64,000 nt of DNA from NCBI RefSeq assembly GCF_902826655.1, contig NZ_CADEFR010000011.1, forward strand, positions 28,214 through 92,213, given 5' to 3'. The notes below the pieces were generated by a model. It saw only the letters and a program-made list of their open reading frames with translations. It did not search any database and was not told the DNA's origin. Made by a program: the position numbers and the translations under genes. Shown here piece after piece: positions 16,409-23,873 of this stretch. Positions within the stretch are counted from its first letter, which is position 1; each line of letters opens with the position of its first letter. Origin of the DNA: an uncultured Methylibium sp. (GTDB lineage: Bacteria; Pseudomonadota; Gammaproteobacteria; Burkholderiales; Burkholderiaceae_C).

Positions 16409-17977
16409 TCAGATCGTTCGTGCCGTCATCTGCCTGGCGATGTAGTCGGCCTGACGGATCGCGAGGGTCACGATGGTCAGCGTGGGGTTCTCCGCGCCGC
16501 CGGTCGTGAACTGGCTGCCGTCCGAGATGAAGAGGTTGCCGATGTCGTGCGTCTGGCCGTAGGCGTTGCAGACGCTGTCCTTCGCGCTGGCGCCCATGCG
16601 GCAGGTGCCGAGGTTGTGCGTCGACGGATACGGCGGCGTACGGAAGGTCTTGACCGCGCCGGCCGCCTGGTAGATGCGCTCGCCCTGCTGGAAGGCGTGG
16701 TTGCGCATCGCGACGTCGTTGTCGTGGTCGTCGAAGTGGACGTTGGGCGCCGCGTTGCCGTACTTGTCTTTCACGTTCGGGTTCAGCGTCACACGATTGG
16801 TCTCGCGCGGCATGTCTTCGCCGACCAGCCACATGCCGGCCAGGTTCTCGTAGCGCTCCATCCACCACGTGAAGTCCGCGCCCCAGCCGCCCGGGTTGAG
16901 GAAGGCCGCCATGAAGGGCACGCCGAGAGCCAGCGTCTCCATCTCGTAGCCGCCGGCGAAGCCGCGCTGCGTGTCGTGGCCGGCCTCGTCGCGCACGATG
17001 CCTGCCATCGTCGTGCCGCGGTACATGTGCACCGGCTGCTTGAAAGCCGCGTAGACCGAGCCCGTCATGTGGCGCATGTAGTTGCGACCGACCTGGCCGG
17101 AACTGTTCGCCAGCCCGTCCTTGAACTTGTTCGAGGCCGACAGCAACAGCAGCCGCGGCGTCTCGATCGAGTTGCCGGCGACGCAGACGATGCGGGCTTT
17201 CTGGCGCTGCTCCTTGCCGGCCTTGTCGAAGTAGACGACGCCGGTGACCTTGCCGCTGTCGTCGTGCTCGATGCGTGACACGTGCGACTCCGGCCGCAGG
17301 TCGAGCTGACCGGTCGCCTCGGCCTTGGGCAGCTCGGTGTAGAGCGTGGACCACTTCGCGCCGCTCTTGCAGCCCTGGAAGCAGAAGCCCAGCTGCATGC
17401 AACGGCCGCGGCCGTCGCGCGGCTGGCTGTTGATGGCCATGTTGCCGGTGTGCACGTCCTTGTAGCCGAGCTTCTTCGCGCCGGCGTGGAAGACCTTGAA
17501 GTTGTTGTTGCCGGGCAGGCCGGGGATGCCGTGCGTGCGCGTGACGCCCATCTTGTCTTCGGCCTTGGCGTACCAGGGCTCCAGCTCCTTCAGCGTCAGC
17601 GGCCAGTCCATCAGGTTCGCGCCCGGGATGCCGCCATAGACGGTCTTGACGCGGAACTCGTGCTCCTGCAGGCGCAGCGAGGCGCCGGCCCAGTGCGTGG
17701 TCGTGCCGCCGACGGTCTTGCAGATCCACGCCGGCAGGCCGGCGAAGTCCTTGGCCACGCGCCATGAGCCGGAGGTCGTTCGCGGGTCGAGCCAGGCCAG
17801 CTGGCCGAAGGACTTCCATTCGTCGTTGATGAAGCTGGCCGGCGACTGCACGGCACCGGCCTCCAGCACCACGACCTTGATGCCCTTCTGGCACAGCTCG
17901 TTGGCCAGCGTGCCGCCGCCGGCGCCGGAGCCGATGATGACGACGACCGAGTCGTCGGTTTGCTCGAACTTGGCCAT
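16409..17977 (-). CDS. GMC-family FAD oxidoreductase (gluconate 2-dehydrogenase flavoprotein-subunit-like)
   Basis: Has the N-terminal Rossmann motif VVVIIGSGAGGGTLANEL and the C-terminal GMC block (HNLGTCRMG ... GNLFISDGS). GGAGA precedes the ATG. Confidence 0.92.
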   Translation of the reverse strand: MAKFEQTDDSVVVIIGSGAGGGTLANELCQKGIKVVVLEAGAVQSPASFINDEWKSFGQLAWLDPRTTSGSWRVAKDFAGLPAWICKTVGGTTTHWAGASLRLQEHEFRVKTVYGGIPGANLMDWPLTLKELEPWYAKAEDKMGVTRTHGIPGLPGNNNFKVFHAGAKKLGYKDVHTGNMAINSQPRDGRGRCMQLGFCFQGCKSGAKWSTLYTELPKAEATGQLDLRPESHVSRIEHDDSGKVTGVVYFDKAGKEQRQKARIVCVAGNSIETPRLLLLSASNKFKDGLANSSGQVGRNYMRHMTGSVYAAFKQPVHMYRGTTMAGIVRDEAGHDTQRGFAGGYEMETLALGVPFMAAFLNPGGWGADFTWWMERYENLAGMWLVGEDMPRETNRVTLNPNVKDKYGNAAPNVHFDDHDNDVAMRNHAFQQGERIYQAAGAVKTFRTPPYPSTHNLGTCRMGASAKDSVCNAYGQTHDIGNLFISDGSQFTTGGAENPTLTIVTLAIRQADYIARQMTARTI

Positions 17978-18013
17978 GTCCTGTCTCCGTGTCGTTCTGG
18001 GGCGCTCGCGGGC

Positions 18014-18640
18014 TCAGCCGAAGTAGGGCTTCGGACTGGCGGCTTCGGGCGGCGCCGGCAGCCACTTCAGGTCCTGGAAGCCGCGCGTGATGTAGCCGCC
18101 CTTCTCCCAGGCCGACCCGGGATAGCCCAGCGCGGTGAACGCCATGTCGTTGTCGTACAGCGAGGTCACGCACTGGCCACGCACCTTGCCGAAGAAGGGG
18201 CTGCCCTCGATGGCCTTGACCGCAGCCAGTCGCTTGGCCTCGTTGGCCCTGGCGAATCCACCGCTGGCCCGGTTCAGGCCGGCGATGCCCTCGCGCAGCA
18301 ACGTGGCCGTCGCCGGGTCGGACGAGGCCGCGCCGTCCAGGTCCTTGGCGAGGAGCGCATAGACCGCATCGGGCAGCTTGCGGTGTGGGTACAGGGTGCG
18401 GCCCAGCTTCATCAGTGCCTCGCCCTCGGCCTTGCTCAGCGTCTTGAGCTCGACGGCCCAGACCGTCGAAGGCGCCAGCGCTGCGAGCGGGCTGCCGACG
18501 GCCAGGCTGCCGATCAGCACGCCCGAGCCCTTGAGGAACTCGCGCCGGGCCAGCGGCAGGGGGAGCTTGGGAGCGGATGCCGGTGCGTCGTCGCAGCTCG
18601 CGAACGCCACGGCATCCCCGAGGATGGGGACGATCTTCAT
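18014..18640 (-). CDS. Gluconate 2-dehydrogenase subunit-3-family small subunit with a Tat signal
   Basis: A twin-arginine motif (ARREFLKGSG) lies after MKIVPIL. Its position directly upstream of the GMC flavoprotein gene is typical. The start at ATG 18640 is preceded by AGGAGA. Confidence 0.82.
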   Translation of the reverse strand: MKIVPILGDAVAFASCDDAPASAPKLPLPLARREFLKGSGVLIGSLAVGSPLAALAPSTVWAVELKTLSKAEGEALMKLGRTLYPHRKLPDAVYALLAKDLDGAASSDPATATLLREGIAGLNRASGGFARANEAKRLAAVKAIEGSPFFGKVRGQCVTSLYDNDMAFTALGYPGSAWEKGGYITRGFQDLKWLPAPPEAASPKPYFG

Positions 18641-18781
18641 GCCTTGTCTCCTGTGTTCTTCGTGGCCCATGTCGATGCCGGGCCTGCGAATCAGTATTGC
18701 ACCAGCCTTCGCGGGGCGGGTGATAGTTGGCTACCTACCAGGGTCGCCCGTTCGTCCGCAGGCCGCTGCTACGATGACCGC

Positions 18782-19360
18782 ATGGCCAATCGACTGACGC
18801 AGATCGCCACCCGCACCGGCGACGACGGCACCACCGGGTTGGGCGACGGCAGTCGCGTCCCCAAGGACCACCTGCGCGTGCAGGCCATGGGCGACGTCGA
18901 CGAGCTGAACTCGACGCTCGGCCTGCTGCTCTGCGAGCCGCTGCCGGATGCGGTGCGGGCCTTGCTGGTGACGATCCAGCACGAGCTCTTCAACCTGGGC
19001 GGAGAACTGTCGATCCCGGGCTATGCGCTGCTGAAGGACGAGGCCGTGGCGGCGCTCGATGCCGCGCTGGCCGAGCACAACGCGCAACTGCCGCGGCTGC
19101 AGGAATTCATCCTGCCGGCCGGCACCCGCAGCGCGGCGATCGCGCACGTCGGGCGGACCGTCGCGCGTCGTGCCGAGCGTGCCGTGGTGGCCCTGGCCAA
19201 CGCGGAAAGTGGCGCGGTGCGCGAGGCGGCGCGCCAGTATCTGAATCGCCTGAGCGACCTGCTGTTCGTGCTGGCGCGGGTGTTGAACCGCGCCAATCTC
19301 GACGGCCTGGGCGGCGACGACGTCTATTGGCGCAGCCCGAAGCTGGAAGCTTCGGGCTGA
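18782..19360 (+). CDS. PduO-type ATP:cob(I)alamin adenosyltransferase
   Basis: MANRLTQIATRTGDDGTTGL ... MGDVDELNS ... IQHELFNLGGEL ... FILPAG ... ARTVARRAER are characteristic PduO/MMAB motifs. Confidence 0.9.
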   Translation: MANRLTQIATRTGDDGTTGLGDGSRVPKDHLRVQAMGDVDELNSTLGLLLCEPLPDAVRALLVTIQHELFNLGGELSIPGYALLKDEAVAALDAALAEHNAQLPRLQEFILPAGTRSAAIAHVGRTVARRAERAVVALANAESGAVREAARQYLNRLSDLLFVLARVLNRANLDGLGGDDVYWRSPKLEASG

Positions 19361-19372
19361 CGCCGCGCTGCC

Positions 19373-19678
19373 CTACTTGGCCGGCGCCTGGTAGCCGAGC
19401 GCGAACTCGGTGCTGCTGAGCATGCCGTCCTTGTCGGTGTCCAGCGCCTCGAAGCGCGCGGCGATGGCCGGCAGGGCGACGGCCTCCGAGGGGCTCAGCT
19501 TGCCGTCGCTGTTGGCATCGGCGCGCTTGAAGGCGGCCTGGGCCGTGGCGTCGGCCGGCTTGGCCGCCGGCATCGTGGTCTGAGCCTGGGCCACCGCGGC
19601 GCCGGCCACCGAGAAGGCGGCCACCGTCACGCCGAGGATGCGTCGGGCCTGGGCTTGCATGGTGCGAGTGCGAGTCAT
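19373..19678 (-). CDS. Secreted EF-hand calcium-binding protein
   Basis: Signal peptide plus two canonical EF loops, DANSDGKLSPSE and DTDKDGMLSSTE. The start at ATG 19678 has AAGGA 6 nt upstream. Confidence 0.8.
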   Translation of the reverse strand: MTRTRTMQAQARRILGVTVAAFSVAGAAVAQAQTTMPAAKPADATAQAAFKRADANSDGKLSPSEAVALPAIAARFEALDTDKDGMLSSTEFALGYQAPAK

Positions 19679-19831
19679 CGTCTGTCCTTTCGGATCGATT
19701 GCGGGAACCCTCATTGCAGCCGCCAATGCCCCCTGAGGCCAGCACTCTTGCCGGGCCTTGCCTGCGTTACCCGAAGACCTGTCTTGCTTACTTGCGATAG
19801 CACACGCTCACTTTGTTGCTGAACGTCAAGC

Positions 19832-20950
19832 TCAGCCGCGACGCGCCCGGACCGCTGCGGCCAGGATGTCCAGCACCTCCAGCGAATCGTCCCAGCCGAT
19901 GCACGCGTCGGTGATGCTCTGGCCGTAGGCCAGCTGGGTCGGGTCGTCCCTGCCGGCGCTGAACTTCTGGGCACCGGCCTGCAGATGGCTCTCGACCATC
20001 ACCCCGAAGACCTGACGGCTGCCGCCGGCAGTCTGCCCGGCGATGTCACGCGCCACGTCGAGCTGCTTCTGGTGCTGCTTGCTGCTGTTGGCATGCGAGC
20101 AGTCGACCATCAGCGTCGCGGGCAGGCCGGCCTTGGCCAGTTCGGCGCAGGCCGCGCCGACGCTGGCTGCGTCGTAGTTCGGCGCCTTGCCACCGCGCAG
20201 GATGACGTGGCAGTCCTTGTTGCCGCGGGTCTCGACGATCGCGACCTGGCCGTTCTTGTGCACCGACAGGAAGTGGTGCGGGCGGCTCGCCGACTGGATC
20301 GCGTCGACGGCGATCCGCAGGTTGCCGTCGGTGCCGTTCTTGAAGCCGATCGGCGCGCTGATGCCCGAGGCCAGCTCGCGATGCACCTGGCTCTCGGTGG
20401 TGCGGGCGCCGATCGCGCCCCAGGAGATCAGGTCGCCGATGTACTGCGGCGAGATCACGTCGAGGAACTCGCTGCCCGCCGGCAGGCCCAGCCGGCCGAT
20501 CTCGAGCAGCAGCTGGCGCGCGATGCGCAGGCCCTCGTCGATGCGGAAGCTCTCGTCGAGGTAGGGGTCGTTGATCAGTCCCTTCCAGCCGACCGTCGTG
20601 CGCGGCTTCTCGAAGTAGACGCGCATCACCACCTCGAGCTCGCCTGCGTGCTTCTCGCGCTGGACCCTGAGCTTGCGGGCGTACTCGATCGCGGCCGCCG
20701 GGTCGTGGATCGAGCACGGTCCCATGATGACCAGCAGGCGGTCGTCCTGGCCGTTCATGATGTCGCGGATGCGGCGCCGGGTGCTGACCACCAGCTCCTC
20801 GACCGCCGTACCGCGCACCGGGAAGAAGCGGATCAGGTGTTCGGGCGGCGGCAGCGGCATCACGTCCTCGATGCGCTCGTCGTCGGTCTGGCTGGTCTTG
20901 TCGGCGGGCGGTGCCCATCCCTCGGGGACATTGGCGGACAGGGCATTCAT
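19832..20950 (-). CDS. 3-deoxy-7-phosphoheptulonate (DAHP) synthase, class I (AroF/G/H type)
   Basis: 372 aa with LLVIMGPCSIHD, KPRTTVGWKGLINDP, IGARTTESQVHRELASG and MVDCSHANS. The ATG at 20950 is preceded by GGAGAAG. Confidence 0.95.
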   Translation of the reverse strand: MNALSANVPEGWAPPADKTSQTDDERIEDVMPLPPPEHLIRFFPVRGTAVEELVVSTRRRIRDIMNGQDDRLLVIMGPCSIHDPAAAIEYARKLRVQREKHAGELEVVMRVYFEKPRTTVGWKGLINDPYLDESFRIDEGLRIARQLLLEIGRLGLPAGSEFLDVISPQYIGDLISWGAIGARTTESQVHRELASGISAPIGFKNGTDGNLRIAVDAIQSASRPHHFLSVHKNGQVAIVETRGNKDCHVILRGGKAPNYDAASVGAACAELAKAGLPATLMVDCSHANSSKQHQKQLDVARDIAGQTAGGSRQVFGVMVESHLQAGAQKFSAGRDDPTQLAYGQSITDACIGWDDSLEVLDILAAAVRARRG

Positions 20951-20997
20951 CGGGGCTTCTCCAGTGGCGGATCGGGGTTCGTGAGGGCGTGCGGACG

Positions 20998-21029
20998 AAA
21001 AAAAACCGCCGGGGGAGGCCCGGCGGTTT
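20998..21029 (-). terminator. Rho-independent terminator between the leader ORF and the DAHP synthase gene
   Basis: The minus strand reads AAACCGCCGGG-CCUCC-CCCGGCGGUUU followed by UUUUUU. This gives an 11-bp stem, a 5-nt loop and a 9-U run, ending 47 nt before the DAHP synthase ATG. Confidence 0.8.
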
Positions 21030-21051
21030 GGGGATTCGGCTGCGCTGCGTC

Positions 21052-21126
21052 TTAAGCGCTGGCCTCTCCTCCGCCGGGGCGGTGCGAGAACCAGAAGTAC
21101 GCAAAAAAGTAGGCGTTCGAGCGCAT
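21052..21126 (-). CDS. Candidate attenuator leader peptide MRSNAYFFAYFWFSHRPGGGEASA (24 aa)
   Basis: This small ORF is not in the supplied track (below its size cutoff). Codons 6-13 read Y F F A Y F W F. The TAA stop lies 22 nt before the terminator stem. No clear SD sequence precedes the ATG. Confidence 0.55.
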   Translation of the reverse strand: MRSNAYFFAYFWFSHRPGGGEASA

Positions 21127-21195
21127 ACGCTGGAATGTAGCACGGGGTCGGCGCCACGGCCGCGCGCTGTTGCGCCCGCGCCGCGCGGTCTTCGG

Positions 21196-22413
21196 TCAGT
21201 AGGCCGCGGCCTCGAAGCCCTGGGCCTGCAGTGCCGCAATCACGGCACCGATGTGCTCGTGGTTGCGCGTCTGCAGCACCAGCTCGACCTCGACGTTGAG
21301 TGCCGCCAGCATCGTGAAGGCGCGCTGGTGATGTACCTCCTCGATGTTGGCGCCAGCCTCGGCCACCACCGCGGTGATGCGCGCCAGCGCGCCCGGCGTA
21401 TCGCGCGCGCCGACGCGGATCCGCGCCAGGCGGCCGGCGCGCACCATGCCGCGCTCGATGATCGCGGCCAGCAGCAGCGGGTCGATGTTGCCGCCGCACA
21501 GCACCAGGCCGACCTTGCGGCCCGCGAAGCGCCGGGGATCCTTCAGCAGCGCGGCGAGGCCGGCGGCGCCGGCGCCTTCGACGAGCGTCTTCTCGATCTC
21601 GAGCAGCATCACGATCGCCTGCTCGATGTCGCCCTCGTCGACCAGCACCATGTCGTCGACCAGGGCCTTGATCAGCTCGCGCGTGAGGCGCCCCGGCTCG
21701 CCGACCGCGATGCCTTCGGCGATGGTGCTCGACCCTTGCGGATGGGTCGTGCCCTTGATCGCGTTGACCATCGCCGGGAAGCGCGAGGTCTGCACGCCGA
21801 CGATCTGCAGCGAGGGTTTCAGGGCCCGCGCGACCGTGGCGATGCCGGAGATCATGCCGCCGCCGCCGACGGCGATCACCAGCGTGTCGAGGTCGGGCTG
21901 CTGGCGCAGCATCTCGAGCGCGATCGTGCCCTGGCCCGCGATCACCAGCGGGTCGTCGAAGGGGTGGACGAAGGCCAGGCCTTCGGCCTCGGCGACGCGC
22001 ATGGCCTCGGCGCGCGCCTCGTCGAAGCTCTCGCCGTGCAGCAGCACCTCGGCGCCGAAGCCGCGGGTGCGCGCGACCTTCACCGTCGGCGTGTGCAGCG
22101 GCATCACGATCACCGCGCGCAGGCCCAGCCGTTGCGCGTGGTGGGCCACGCCCTGGGCGTGGTTGCCTGCCGAGGCCGCGATCACGCCTTTGAGGGAGGC
22201 GCCGTCCCGGGCCAGCGTCAGCAGCTTGTTCAGCGCGCCGCGCTCCTTGAAGGAGGCGGTGAACTGCAGGTTCTCGAATTTCAGGAAGACCTGGGCGCCG
22301 GTGATCTGCGACAGCGTCTTCGACTCGACGCAGGGCGTCTCCAGCACCTGGCCGCTCAGGCGCCCGGCAGCGGCTTCGACATCGGCCAGCGTGACCGGTG
22401 CCGCAACGCTCAA
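21196..22413 (-). CDS. ilvA: Threonine ammonia-lyase (threonine dehydratase, short form with one ACT-like domain)
   Basis: PLP motif FKFENLQFTASFKERGA, then GNHAQGVA, and a C-terminal ACT-like region. The proposed TTG start at 22413 has GGAGG 6 nt upstream and overlaps the tldD stop (TTGA). The track ORF 21196..23901 is an artefactual extension over tldD. Confidence 0.88.
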   Translation of the reverse strand: MSVAAPVTLADVEAAAGRLSGQVLETPCVESKTLSQITGAQVFLKFENLQFTASFKERGALNKLLTLARDGASLKGVIAASAGNHAQGVAHHAQRLGLRAVIVMPLHTPTVKVARTRGFGAEVLLHGESFDEARAEAMRVAEAEGLAFVHPFDDPLVIAGQGTIALEMLRQQPDLDTLVIAVGGGGMISGIATVARALKPSLQIVGVQTSRFPAMVNAIKGTTHPQGSSTIAEGIAVGEPGRLTRELIKALVDDMVLVDEGDIEQAIVMLLEIEKTLVEGAGAAGLAALLKDPRRFAGRKVGLVLCGGNIDPLLLAAIIERGMVRAGRLARIRVGARDTPGALARITAVVAEAGANIEEVHHQRAFTMLAALNVEVELVLQTRNHEHIGAVIAALQAQGFEAAAY

Positions 22414-23873
22414 GCCGTGCCTCCGACGGTCAGACCGTCGATGCGCAGAGTGGGTTGACCGACGCCGACCGGCACGCTCTGGCCTTCCTTGCCGCAGGTG
22501 CCGACGCCGGTGTCGAGCTTCATGTCGTTGCCGACCATCTTGACGCGCGTCAGTGCATCCGGACCGTTGCCGATGATGGTCGCACCCTTGACCGGGTACT
22601 GGATGCGGCCGTTCTCGACCCAGAAGGCTTCGCTGGCGGAGAAGACGAACTTGCCGCTGGTGATGTCGACCTGGCCGCCGCCGAAGTTGGTGGCGTACAG
22701 GCCCTTCTTCATCGACGCGACGATCTCGTCGCTGGTCTTGTCGCCGCCCAGCATGTAGGTGTTGGTCATGCGCGGCATCGGCACGTGCGCATAGCTCTCG
22801 CGGCGACCGTTGCCGGTGGGGGCGACCTTCATCAGGCGCGCGTTCATCGAGTCCTGGATGTAGCCCCGCAGGATGCCATCCTCGATCAGCACGTTGCGCT
22901 GCGTCGCGTTGCCCTCGTCGTCGACATTGAGCGAGCCGCGGCGGTCGGGGAGGGTGCCGTCGTCGAGCACGGTCACCCCCTTGGCCGCAACGCGCTGGCC
23001 GATCTTGCCGCTGAAGGCCGACGAGCCCTTGCGGTTGAAGTCGCCTTCCAGGCCGTGGCCGATGGCCTCGTGCAGCAGGATGCCGGGCCAGCCCGGGCCC
23101 AGCACCACGGTCATCTCGCCGGCCTTGGCGGGCCGGCTCTCGAGGTTGGTCAGCGCGGCGTTGACGGCCTGGTCGACATAGCCCGCGATCATGTCGTCGT
23201 GGAAGTAGCCGAGGCCGAAGCGCCCGCCGCCGCCGCTGGAGCCCATCTCGCGGCGACCGTTCTGCTCGGCGATCACCGTCACCGACAGGCGCACCAGCGG
23301 GCGCACGTCGGCGGCGATCGTGCCGTCGGCGCGCGCCACCAGCACCACGTCGTACTCGCTCGCCACGCCGGCCATCACCTGGGCGATGCGCGGGTCCTTG
23401 GCGCGCGCCATCTTCTCGACCTTCTCGAGCAGCGCCACCTTCTGCGTGCTGTCGAGCGTGGCGATCGGGTCCATCGGCGCGTAGAGCACGCGGCTGCCCG
23501 CCAGCTTGGCGGCGCCGCCGACCTTGACCTTGCGGCTCGCGCCCGAAGCCGCGATCGTCCGCACCGTGCGCGCGGCGTCCAGCAGCGCGGCCTCGGAGAT
23601 GTCGTCGCTGTAGGCGAAGGCGGTCTTCTCGCCGACCACCGCGCGCACGCCCACGCCCTGGTCGATGCCGAAGCTGCCGCTCTTGACGATGCCTTCCTCC
23701 AGGCTCCAGCCTTCGCTGCGCGTGTACTGGAAATAGAGGTCGGCGTCGTCGATGCGGTGCTCGCCGATCGTGCGCAGCGCGCCGGCCAGCTTGCCTTCGT
23801 CGAGACCGTAGGGCTCGAGCAGCAGCGTTCTGGCGACCGCCAGACGCTCGACGGTGGGTTCGCGAGAGATCAT
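22410..23873 (-). CDS. tldD: Metalloprotease TldD
   Basis: 487 aa with DLYFQYTRSEGWSLEEG, HEAIGHGLEGD (the HExxxH variant typical of TldD) and a C-terminal GxC block. Confidence 0.95.
   Translation of the reverse strand: MISREPTVERLAVARTLLLEPYGLDEGKLAGALRTIGEHRIDDADLYFQYTRSEGWSLEEGIVKSGSFGIDQGVGVRAVVGEKTAFAYSDDISEAALLDAARTVRTIAASGASRKVKVGGAAKLAGSRVLYAPMDPIATLDSTQKVALLEKVEKMARAKDPRIAQVMAGVASEYDVVLVARADGTIAADVRPLVRLSVTVIAEQNGRREMGSSGGGGRFGLGYFHDDMIAGYVDQAVNAALTNLESRPAKAGEMTVVLGPGWPGILLHEAIGHGLEGDFNRKGSSAFSGKIGQRVAAKGVTVLDDGTLPDRRGSLNVDDEGNATQRNVLIEDGILRGYIQDSMNARLMKVAPTGNGRRESYAHVPMPRMTNTYMLGGDKTSDEIVASMKKGLYATNFGGGQVDITSGKFVFSASEAFWVENGRIQYPVKGATIIGNGPDALTRVKMVGNDMKLDTGVGTCGKEGQSVPVGVGQPTLRIDGLTVGGTA

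Follow-up and report, generated by a model that had tools for sequence, protein, structure and literature searches.

We analysed a 64,000-nt stretch of DNA from an uncultured Methylibium sp. (contig NZ_CADEFR010000011.1, positions 28,214 to 92,213), hereafter referred to as the window, with respect to a putative attenuator located on its minus strand, directly upstream of a gene for a class I 3-deoxy-D-arabino-heptulosonate 7-phosphate (DAHP) synthase. All coordinates of the element are given as window positions (Table 1). The identity of the downstream gene, called aroG in the following, is supported by a match to TIGR00034 with 522.7 bits (cut-off 173.2, E 3e-157) spanning residues 23-371, and residues 1-372 align with orthologues from the first residue on. 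The score for the AroG equivalog is below its cut-off and that for the AroH subfamily above, and feedback specificity is not assignable from these. Between aroG and a threonine ammonia-lyase gene of the ilvA type lie a short open reading frame (ORF) with a run of aromatic codons and a hairpin followed by a T run, which an earlier annotation of this DNA (the original prediction) had interpreted as the leader and the intrinsic terminator of an aromatic amino acid attenuator.

Sequence reading confirmed most of the anatomy described in the original prediction. This includes the class I DAHP synthase downstream, the leader ORF at 21126..21052 (ATG at 21126, TAA at 21054-21052), the presence of 7 aromatic residues among the 8 encoded by codons 6-13 (Y F F A Y F W F), and the distances of 22 nt from the TAA to the terminator stem, 47 nt from the last T of the terminator (20998) to the aroG ATG (20950), and 69 nt from the threonine ammonia-lyase stop (21196) to the leader ATG. 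Furthermore, leader codons 17-19 (CCCGGCGG, 21078-21071) had been described as a duplicate of the terminator 3' arm; they are identical to it and complementary to CCGCCGGG (21026-21019). The terminator stem of 11 bp (AAACCGCCGGG / CCCGGCGGTTT, 21029-21019 / 21013-21003; loop CCTCC) also corresponds to the earlier description, and the terminator scan picked up the same hairpin as sequence reading. Read as RNA, it consists of AAACCGCCGGG-CCUCC-CCCGGCGGUUU (21029-21003) and ends in a run of 8 U (21005-20998), rather than the 9 counted previously.

Among the short ORFs on both strands of the window, the leader ORF is the only one with at least 5 aromatic residues in 8. Moreover, none of 200 first-order Markov simulations of the window, which has a G+C content of 70.5%, gave 6 aromatic codons within a stop-free stretch of 8 codons in any frame, compared to the 7 observed. 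The terminator is not significant on its own, with 1 terminator-like site found in 4 kb and 1.3 expected in shuffles; its significance stems from its conservation in relatives and not from window statistics.

Table 1. Features of the putative attenuator and of neighbouring genes in the window.
Feature	Position	Strand	Basis or remark
Extended -10 element TGcTACATT (TG 21142-21141, hexamer TACATT 21139-21134)	21134..21142	-	conservation; predicted promoter
Predicted transcription start, A of leader AUG (leaderless mRNA)	21126	-	inferred from -10 spacing
Leader ORF, 24 codons + TAA, peptide MRSNAYFFAYFWFSHRPGGGEASA	21052..21126	-	sequence reading
Regulatory codon run, codons 6-13 (Tyr Phe Phe Ala Tyr Phe Trp Phe)	21088..21111	-	sequence reading and alignment
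Region 1 (CUGGUUCUC), predicted 5' arm of the 1:2 anti-antiterminator hairpin; overlaps the last aromatic codons	21086..21094	-	folding; TGGTTCTC nearly invariant
Region 2 (CCCGGCGGAGGAGAGGCC), predicted to pair with region 1 and spacer (1:2) or with region 3 (2:3)	21061..21078	-	GGCGG core (nearly) invariant
Small hairpin GCGCU-UAAGACGC-AGCGC over the leader stop codon, inside the antiterminator loop	21042..21059	-	window folds, low confidence
UCCCC motif (CCUC/CUCC in relatives), predicted partner of region 2 GGAG/GAGAGG in the extended antiterminator	21030..21034	-	folding
Region 3 (AAACCGCCGGG), terminator 5' arm and predicted partner of region 2	21019..21029	-	CCGCC invariant (71/71)
Terminator loop CCUCC	21014..21018	-	loop sequence not conserved among relatives
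Region 4 (CCCGGCGG) and run of 8 U, terminator 3' arm and U-tract	20998..21013	-	GGCGGTTTTT invariant
Shine-Dalgarno-like GGAGAA of the DAHP synthase gene	20957..20962	-	sequence reading only
DAHP synthase, class I (AroF/G/H-type), 372 aa, the putatively regulated gene	19832..20950	-	TIGR00034
Threonine ammonia-lyase (ilvA-type)	21196-22416	-	NF005600, 640 bits
tldD	22410-23873	-	upstream of ilvA in the window
PduO-type cobalamin adenosyltransferase domain (PF01923, residues 282-442 of a mechanical ORF)	17960-19360	+	converges on the aroG 3' end

A scan for DAHP synthase relatives, restricted to a single genome of each species, yielded 80 loci with 73-81% protein identity, including Rhizobacter, Roseateles, Variovorax, Polaromonas, Acidovorax, Rhodoferax, Ramlibacter, Aquabacterium, Comamonas, Hydrogenophaga, Limnohabitans, Rubrivivax, Ideonella and others. 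The attenuator unit was found in 70 of these loci, which belong to the Comamonadaceae and the Rubrivivax/Roseateles/Aquabacterium group. The original prediction had proposed that the upstream regions of orthologues be compared; the ORF, the aromatic run, the CCGGCGG box and the terminator recur at equal spacing in these 70/80 loci. Together with the window, they form the alignment A1 (71 sequences), throughout which a promoter box, the ATG, the aromatic run, CCGGCGG-nn-GAGAGG, the stop codon and AACCGCCGG..CCGGCGGT(n) are shared over a unit of 166-192 nt, from position -45 to the end of the T run. The leader ORF is open in all 71 sequences (16-28 codons) and follows the consensus x4-5-F-Y-F-x-Y-F-W-F-S-x2-3-G-G-R-E-..-A, after which the terminator AACCGCCGG...CCGGCGGT(n) begins. 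Within A1, the conserved blocks are, in this order, TGTGCTACATT, ATG, TTTTAnTTTnnnTACTTTTGGTTCTC, CCGGCGGAnGAGAGGC, GCGCGTAA, a CCTC-like motif, as well as AAACCGCCGG and CCGGCGGTTTTTTT.

Independently of the gene search, metagenome contigs were searched from the leader side for the pattern TGGTTCTC-N5-16-GGCGG-N2-3-GAGAG. This resulted in 120 matches, 65 of which have the aromatic run in frame. An intrinsic terminator follows in all 61 metagenomic leaders with at least 140 nt of downstream sequence, as it does between leader and gene throughout the 71 aligned sequences. Where at least 500 nt are available downstream (53 leaders), a DAHP synthase gene is found at most 400 nt away in every case. 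Among the chance matches of the pattern, only 1 of 55 has a terminator or a DAHP synthase gene, namely a 5'-truncated copy. Linkage of the element to the DAHP synthase gene is therefore both specific and exclusive, as the search from the leader side (53/53) points only there. The gene upstream of the leader, on the other hand, differs between the 70 loci: it is tldD in 50 and of the ilvA type in 3, and none was detected in 17. Thus, judging from gene neighbourhoods, the putative attenuator unit travels with aroG and not with the upstream gene. In the window, ilvA is inserted between tldD and the leader, giving the order tldD, ilvA, leader; such a position of ilvA directly upstream of the leader was observed in only 3 genome loci and 2 metagenome loci.

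The alignment also points to a promoter within the unit. In the window, 7 nt separate the -10 hexamer from the leader ATG. Of the 71 sequences, 69 have a TAnnnT box upstream of the ATG at a distance of 6-9 nt, and in all 69 the TG of an extended -10 element precedes the box; the spacing between box and ATG is 6, 7 or 8 nt in 68/71, and the hexamer reads TACATT in 50 sequences. A pyrimidine occupies position -1 in 66/69 sequences, a -35-like hexamer is present in 25/69, and only 1/69 shows a Shine-Dalgarno (SD)-like motif upstream of the leader ATG, which extends to the relatives the earlier remark that no obvious SD sequence precedes it. Because of the conserved -10 box at 6-8 nt from the ATG and the absence of an SD sequence, the element would have its own extended -10 promoter, with a transcription start that coincides with the A of the leader AUG or is adjacent to it, and the leader is probably translated from a leaderless mRNA. 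Readthrough from ilvA, which had been put forward as a possible source of transcription, is not needed, since a conserved -10 box belongs to the unit itself and only 3/70 relatives have ilvA upstream, the usual gene in this place being tldD.

Translation of the ORF is indicated indirectly, by the reading frame being kept open in all copies and by the codon pattern. Codons at the variable aromatic positions have the form T-[T/A]-[T/C], with TTT, TTC, TAT and TAC interchanging, Phe and Tyr being swapped and non-aromatic residues being rare; the sixth position before the last Phe, for example, is occupied by 27 Phe, 21 Tyr and 3 others. This pattern is therefore a signature of selection for the encoded class of Phe/Tyr. 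On average, a leader contains 4.4 Phe, 1.5 Tyr and 0.9 Trp codons, i.e., Phe codons dominate. The sensing of all three aromatic tRNAs through one leader, as put forward in the original prediction, is hypothetical, and in the aroR precedent described below only Phe limitation acted. No annotated copies were found when 10 representative exact peptides were searched in a collection of 15 billion proteins, and no Pfam or NCBIfam profile of a curated peptide family matched 4 representative leaders at E values up to 10.

Codon choice within the run was also observed to be uneven. In 46/51 leaders, TTT is used for the Phe located two positions ahead of Trp, and TAT is frequent for Tyr, in genomes of approximately 65-70% G+C. 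This preference for TTT and TAT could represent rare codons that sharpen the response; alternatively, the preference for TTT could reflect pairing of UUUUGG with a GCGAG segment as the outer part of the 1:2 hairpin described below. Furthermore, the U-rich run UAC UUU UUU GCG of the window is potentially slippery, a property that has been reported for E. coli pheL (PMC3082878).

Within the element, four regions are predicted to form alternative helices (Table 1), i.e., a hairpin of regions 1 and 2 (1:2), an antiterminator (2:3) and the terminator (3:4). In minimum free energy folds of the full-length RNA, the terminator is present in 70/71 sequences and the 1:2 hairpin in 60/71. Nascent RNA was represented by cutting the sequence before region 4 and masking a ribosome footprint on the aromatic run. 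Under these conditions, a footprint placed mid-run gives the antiterminator (CCGGCGG/CCGCCGG) in 71/71 sequences, compared to 65/71 with the footprint on the first aromatic codon and 40/71 with the footprint on the last, and its extension by GAGAGG:CCUC (at least 3 bp) forms in 67/71 with the ribosome on the run. The folding suggested with the original prediction therefore yielded mutually exclusive terminator and antiterminator structures, and both the alternative antiterminator pairing and its formation with a ribosome stalled on the aromatic codons are supported by these models. Mean energies of the 71 sequences are -18.0 kcal/mol for the terminator, -22.6 kcal/mol for the antiterminator segment and -13.3 kcal/mol for 1:2; the corresponding window values are -20.0 kcal/mol (the terminator hairpin taken in isolation), -32.6 kcal/mol and -17.3 kcal/mol. 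On A1, standard pairs account for 95.2% in 1:2 and the terminator and for 90.3% in the antiterminator, compared to 17-62% when partners are slid by 1-3 columns.

The 1:2 anti-antiterminator hairpin, comprising UUCUC:GAGAG and a variable stem onto GGCGG, was absent from the model of the original prediction. Its lower stem includes the last Phe codon (UUC) and is paired in 90-91% of alignment cells. In the upper stem, the GGCGG box constitutes the 3' arm, and the 5' arm is drawn from the variable codons after Ser. The resulting register is ACCGC:GCGG in the window, and other clades have GUCC:GGAC, GCGCC:GGCG or GUUC-CCGG:CCGG-GGAC. Since clades use different registers, column-wise covariation was abandoned for the upper stem, which was assessed by per-sequence folding and a spacer-shuffle test instead; native spacers between UUCUC and GGCGG stabilise 1:2 more than shuffled ones, with a mean z of -0.73. 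A further pairing proposed previously, that of GGAGG with the terminator loop CCUCC, fails on helix geometry, as the loop lies 3' of region 3 and thus on the wrong side for the helix, in which nucleotides 3' of region 2 have to find their partners 5' of region 3, and the loop is not conserved. The real extension of the antiterminator is predicted to be formed by GAGAGG with the CCUC/UCC motif just upstream of AAACCGCC. As a side observation, the GCG(Y)..ACGC pairing of the small hairpin over the stop codon recurs in many relatives.

The geometry of the ribosome on this RNA was considered as well. With its A site on codons 6-12, it would reach position ~21078 at most, covering region 1 (21094-21086) and leaving region 2 free, and on the last Phe codon it would still leave GGCGG free. 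A ribosome at the stop codon would cover GAGAGG and everything to ~21040 and thus sit between regions 2 and 3.

Divergent copies provide further information about the constraints acting on the unit. The most divergent one, from a metagenome-assembled genome of an uncultured Burkholderiales bacterium (L080:2770-2944), encodes the leader MKNFLQFGFFKNFL..., with Phe codons (MKNFLQFGFFKNFLTAPGAAQRV) as the sole aromatic type. Its regions have changed in a coordinated manner, to GGGGCGG in region 2, CCGCCCC in region 3 and GGGCGG in region 4, so that both helices are preserved. In the Acidovorax-type leaders (L008, L022, L023, L049), which have 18 codons, a C-to-U change converts CGA into UGA right after GGCGGA. 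The GAGAGGCGAGCGCG past this new stop is still conserved though untranslated, which argues for a role at the RNA level. Furthermore, region 3 of these copies ends in GA and not GG, and region 2 does not start with CC, which shortens both helices together. In Aquabacterium-type leaders (L015, L020, L028, L041, L046), His codons were observed interleaved with the aromatic ones (..FYFWHFH(L/I)P..), and regions 1 and 2 are altered to CUCC and GGAG(U)G.

The remaining 10/80 loci lack the leader. The upstream sequence was too short to judge its presence in two of these (L043, L060), aroG directly follows tldD in 4 Polynucleobacter loci (L069, L072, L075, L079) and in L065, and L031 has neither a leader nor a recognisable neighbour. 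In Ralstonia pickettii (L073:2790-3000) and Cupriavidus necator (L066:1500-1710), the aromatic run is lost, but approximately 35 nt are retained, GTCTCGCACCGCC[C/G]CGG[T/C]GG[A/G]GGAG[A/C]GGGCCGCGC, that are close to the region 1-2 hairpin of the window (window 20951-21175, minus strand). The 27-nt core of Ralstonia differs from this hairpin by a single base, and the start ATGCGC-AGC-CAG-GCC in both species resembles the first leader codons of the window (MRSNA). Ralstonia has a different terminator, and in Cupriavidus the terminator is lost. This stretch looks like the relic of a decayed attenuator, overlapped in part by the 3' end of the upstream gene. The relics therefore suggest that the attenuator is older than the clade still using it and has decayed in some lineages.

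With its anatomy, conservation, exclusive linkage to the DAHP synthase gene and thermodynamic feasibility computed directly, the element is, in our assessment, very likely a ribosome-mediated leader-peptide transcription attenuator that sets DAHP synthase expression according to the supply of charged aromatic tRNAs. Translation of the leader, its start site and the response to amino acid supply enter this model as predictions. Transcription would start from the extended -10 element at or next to the A of the AUG, and the 24-codon leader would be read from a leaderless mRNA. When Phe-, Tyr- and possibly Trp-tRNAs are plentiful, the ribosome would pass codons 6-13 and region 2 and reach the stop codon; region 3 would then pair with region 4, the terminator would form, and a transcript of approximately 130 nt would end at ~20998. 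Once the ribosome has been released, the 1:2 hairpin would keep region 2 sequestered. If an aromatic tRNA is in short supply, the ribosome would stall on the run and cover region 1, the free region 2 (CCCGGCGG..GGAG) would pair with region 3 (UCC..CCGCCGGG) before region 4 is made, and with 2:3 formed, RNA polymerase would read into aroG.

Several points weigh against this reading or parts of it. No -35 match was found in the window, although the caveat of the original prediction that there is no clear sigma-70 promoter is answered by the conserved extended -10 box. Trp is represented by a single codon, and since its UGG also belongs to the conserved sequence of region 1, the conservation of this codon may be structural. 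Nascent folds free of ribosomes split between the antiterminator (33/71, including the window) and 1:2 (34/71), and the default state of the untranslated RNA is therefore not derivable from thermodynamics. Moreover, a ribosome at the stop codon covers GAGAGG and misses the GGCGG core, a distance of 16 nt separating the end of this core from the stop in most leaders. Therefore, the block of 2:3 needs a ribosome located between regions 2 and 3 as well as coupling of transcription and translation, and the outcome at the stop codon would rely on a ribosome closely following the polymerase, as in other attenuators. Changes on both sides of a pair are few (3 pairs in 1:2 and the terminator, 2 pairs in the antiterminator); the mutual constraints on the three strands and their invariant core (GGCGG / CCGCC / GGCGG) leave little room for covariation. 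Consequently, support for the structures comes mainly from conservation, energy models and the single lineage L080. The spacer-shuffle test is weak, as the sequences are phylogenetically related and not independent, and the support that it lends is modest.

Other explanations for the element were weighed against the same data. The hairpin lies downstream of ilvA on the same strand and the number of terminator-like sites in 4 kb equals the shuffle expectation, which would be in line with an intrinsic terminator of the upstream gene (ilvA here) next to an aromatic ORF that is a chance frame without regulatory role. The terminator may well also stop transcription from upstream. However, the ORF, the promoter box and the terminator form one conserved unit in 70/80 loci whatever the upstream gene, the aromatic run is far beyond chance, and region 2 duplicates the terminator 3' arm in nearly all sequences. 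This explanation is already contradicted by the comparative data, and we regard its probability as close to negligible. The peptide itself is conserved beyond the need for a codon run, with a nearly invariant W-F-S followed by a (P)GG motif, as would be expected if ..YFWFS..PGG.. acted as a nascent-peptide sensor with a TnaC-like arrest, stalling on free aromatic amino acids or another ligand instead of on tRNA scarcity. Yet the invariant residues coincide with nucleotides of the predicted RNA pairings (UGGUUCUC with region 1, GGCGG with region 2), GAGAGG is conserved even where it is untranslated, and divergent members (L080 and the Aquabacterium type) keep the RNA switch and lose the peptide motif. 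TnaC acts through Rho, without an intrinsic terminator with an alternative helix, and induces a catabolic operon; its logic would be opposite for a biosynthetic gene. A peptide sensor of this kind is therefore very unlikely here.

Finally, termination would give rise to a stable and structured RNA of approximately 130 nt with a predicted promoter of its own, and the trp attenuator of Sinorhizobium meliloti has documented functions in trans (PMC7298713, PMC6614838). Along these lines, the unit might be a trans-acting small RNA and/or small protein resembling rnTrpL/peTrpL, with the control of aroG being secondary or absent. Against this stand the exclusive linkage to DAHP synthase when searching from the leader side (53/53) and the codon content, which fits the pathway, and a role in trans would add to attenuation in cis and not replace it. 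We consider this explanation highly improbable, and a leader-peptide attenuator acting on aroG remains the preferred reading.

An attenuator of this type belongs to the classic leader-peptide kind represented by pheA, pheST and trp, the mechanism of which is already known. Multivalent attenuators are known as well, with Thr and Ile codons in the thr leader and Ile, Leu and Val codons in the ilvGMEDA leader. Like these, the leader described here combines codons for more than one end product of a branched pathway, but the pathway is a different one and the mixture of Phe > Tyr > Trp precedes the common first step. The attenuators of E. coli pheA (pheL; Rfam Phe_leader) and pheST share the short ORF with Phe codons, the 1:2, 2:3 and 3:4 helices and the intrinsic terminator, and pheA is an aromatic-pathway gene controlled via the charging of tRNA-Phe (PMC11802643). 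However, their leaders contain Phe codons only, are SD-led and regulate pheA or pheST and not pathway entry, and the Rfam models revealed no sequence or structure similarity to the element in the window and 10 related loci. The trpL attenuator likewise has a 1:2 / 2:3 / 3:4 architecture, and its RNA in S. meliloti begins with the trpL ATG, with the leaderless start being mapped there (PMC7298713) and predicted here; it differs by containing Trp codons only and by regulating trpE(G).

DAHP synthase genes preceded by leader peptides have been described in two other lineages. In Corynebacterium glutamicum, RNA-seq revealed the aroR leader (F-Y-F) upstream of aroF, and this leader reacts to a limitation of Phe (PMC4046766, PMC11802643); only Phe limitation acted, Tyr supply being without effect (PMC11802643). 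Like the element, it places a DAHP synthase under a leader peptide with mixed Phe and Tyr codons; in contrast, this actinobacterial leader has three regulatory codons compared to seven or eight here, and no Trp codon. The aroR leader is presumably of independent origin. In Acholeplasma, uORFC-13-1 upstream of aroF is a computationally identified upstream ORF with Phe codons, its own promoter and an adjoining terminator (PMC8632094). It differs in belonging to the Mollicutes, in having a ribosome binding site and in being described with at least one Phe codon and 24 representatives, and its sequence shows no apparent relationship to that of the element, with no Rfam match here. In E. coli, DAHP synthase genes are repressed by TyrR and TrpR (PMC5343134, PMC11802643). 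The enterobacterial control of aroF, aroG and aroH by these repressors serves the same task of matching DAHP synthase to aromatic supply, but TyrR and TrpR bind DNA operators and sense free amino acids, whereas the element is predicted to be an RNA switch that reads tRNA charging.

A scan with Rfam leader models had been suggested previously, and no known leader model matched: with Rfam 15, no leader family was found at E values up to 10 in 19500-23000, where only chance matches occurred, and the gathering score was reached nowhere on both strands of the 64-kb window or in 10 related loci. A match to ncS54 over the leader (15.8 bits with 43 required, E 4.7) was rejected as a chance match to a terminator-like hairpin; ncS54 of Burkholderia cenocepacia is flanked by genes for an IclR regulator and an alkaline phosphatase, and its sequence is unrelated to the leader. 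Because no Rfam leader model matches, we regard the element as uncatalogued rather than as a diverged pheL or trpL. Searches of the openly searchable literature, which included the peptide strings, returned no description of the element in Betaproteobacteria and no transcriptome or reporter data for the organisms concerned, the only relevant results being the precedents from Corynebacterium, Acholeplasma and Sinorhizobium; subscription-only comparative attenuator surveys (Vitreschak/Gelfand, Lyubetsky) and RegPrecise may mention the element. With more than 130 examples and strongly conserved blocks, the unannotated element is ready for an RNA family model.

Downstream of aroG, no canonical terminator was found just past the stop codon (scan 19500-23500; stretch 19500-19831). 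As the next gene in this direction (PF01923) is convergent, aroG is probably monocistronic.

The element provides a testable candidate regulator for the committed step of aromatic biosynthesis in Comamonadaceae and the Rubrivivax/Roseateles/Aquabacterium group, with carriers including Variovorax, Acidovorax, Comamonas, Polaromonas and Rhodoferax, all of them common inhabitants of soil, water and the plant microbiome. A far-reaching extension, which we consider rather doubtful, would be that throughout this family-level betaproteobacterial clade one leaderless mini-gene integrates the charging of tRNA-Phe, tRNA-Tyr and tRNA-Trp, gates entry into the shikimate pathway and replaces repressors of the TyrR/TrpR type, and that the RNA of approximately 130 nt and/or the peptide might in addition act in trans, in the manner of rnTrpL and peTrpL. 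If this were true, the set-point of the switch would also depend on the capacity of the cell for leaderless translation, because leaderless initiation is 70S-dependent. After Corynebacterium and Acholeplasma, the clade would represent the third independent lineage with a DAHP synthase under a leader peptide, and its aromatic run is the longest and most mixed of the three. For the engineering of strains producing aromatics, deletion of the terminator would be an obvious route to derepression of aroG. Furthermore, the leaderless start, if confirmed, would be a betaproteobacterial addition to the few known leaderless attenuator ORFs.

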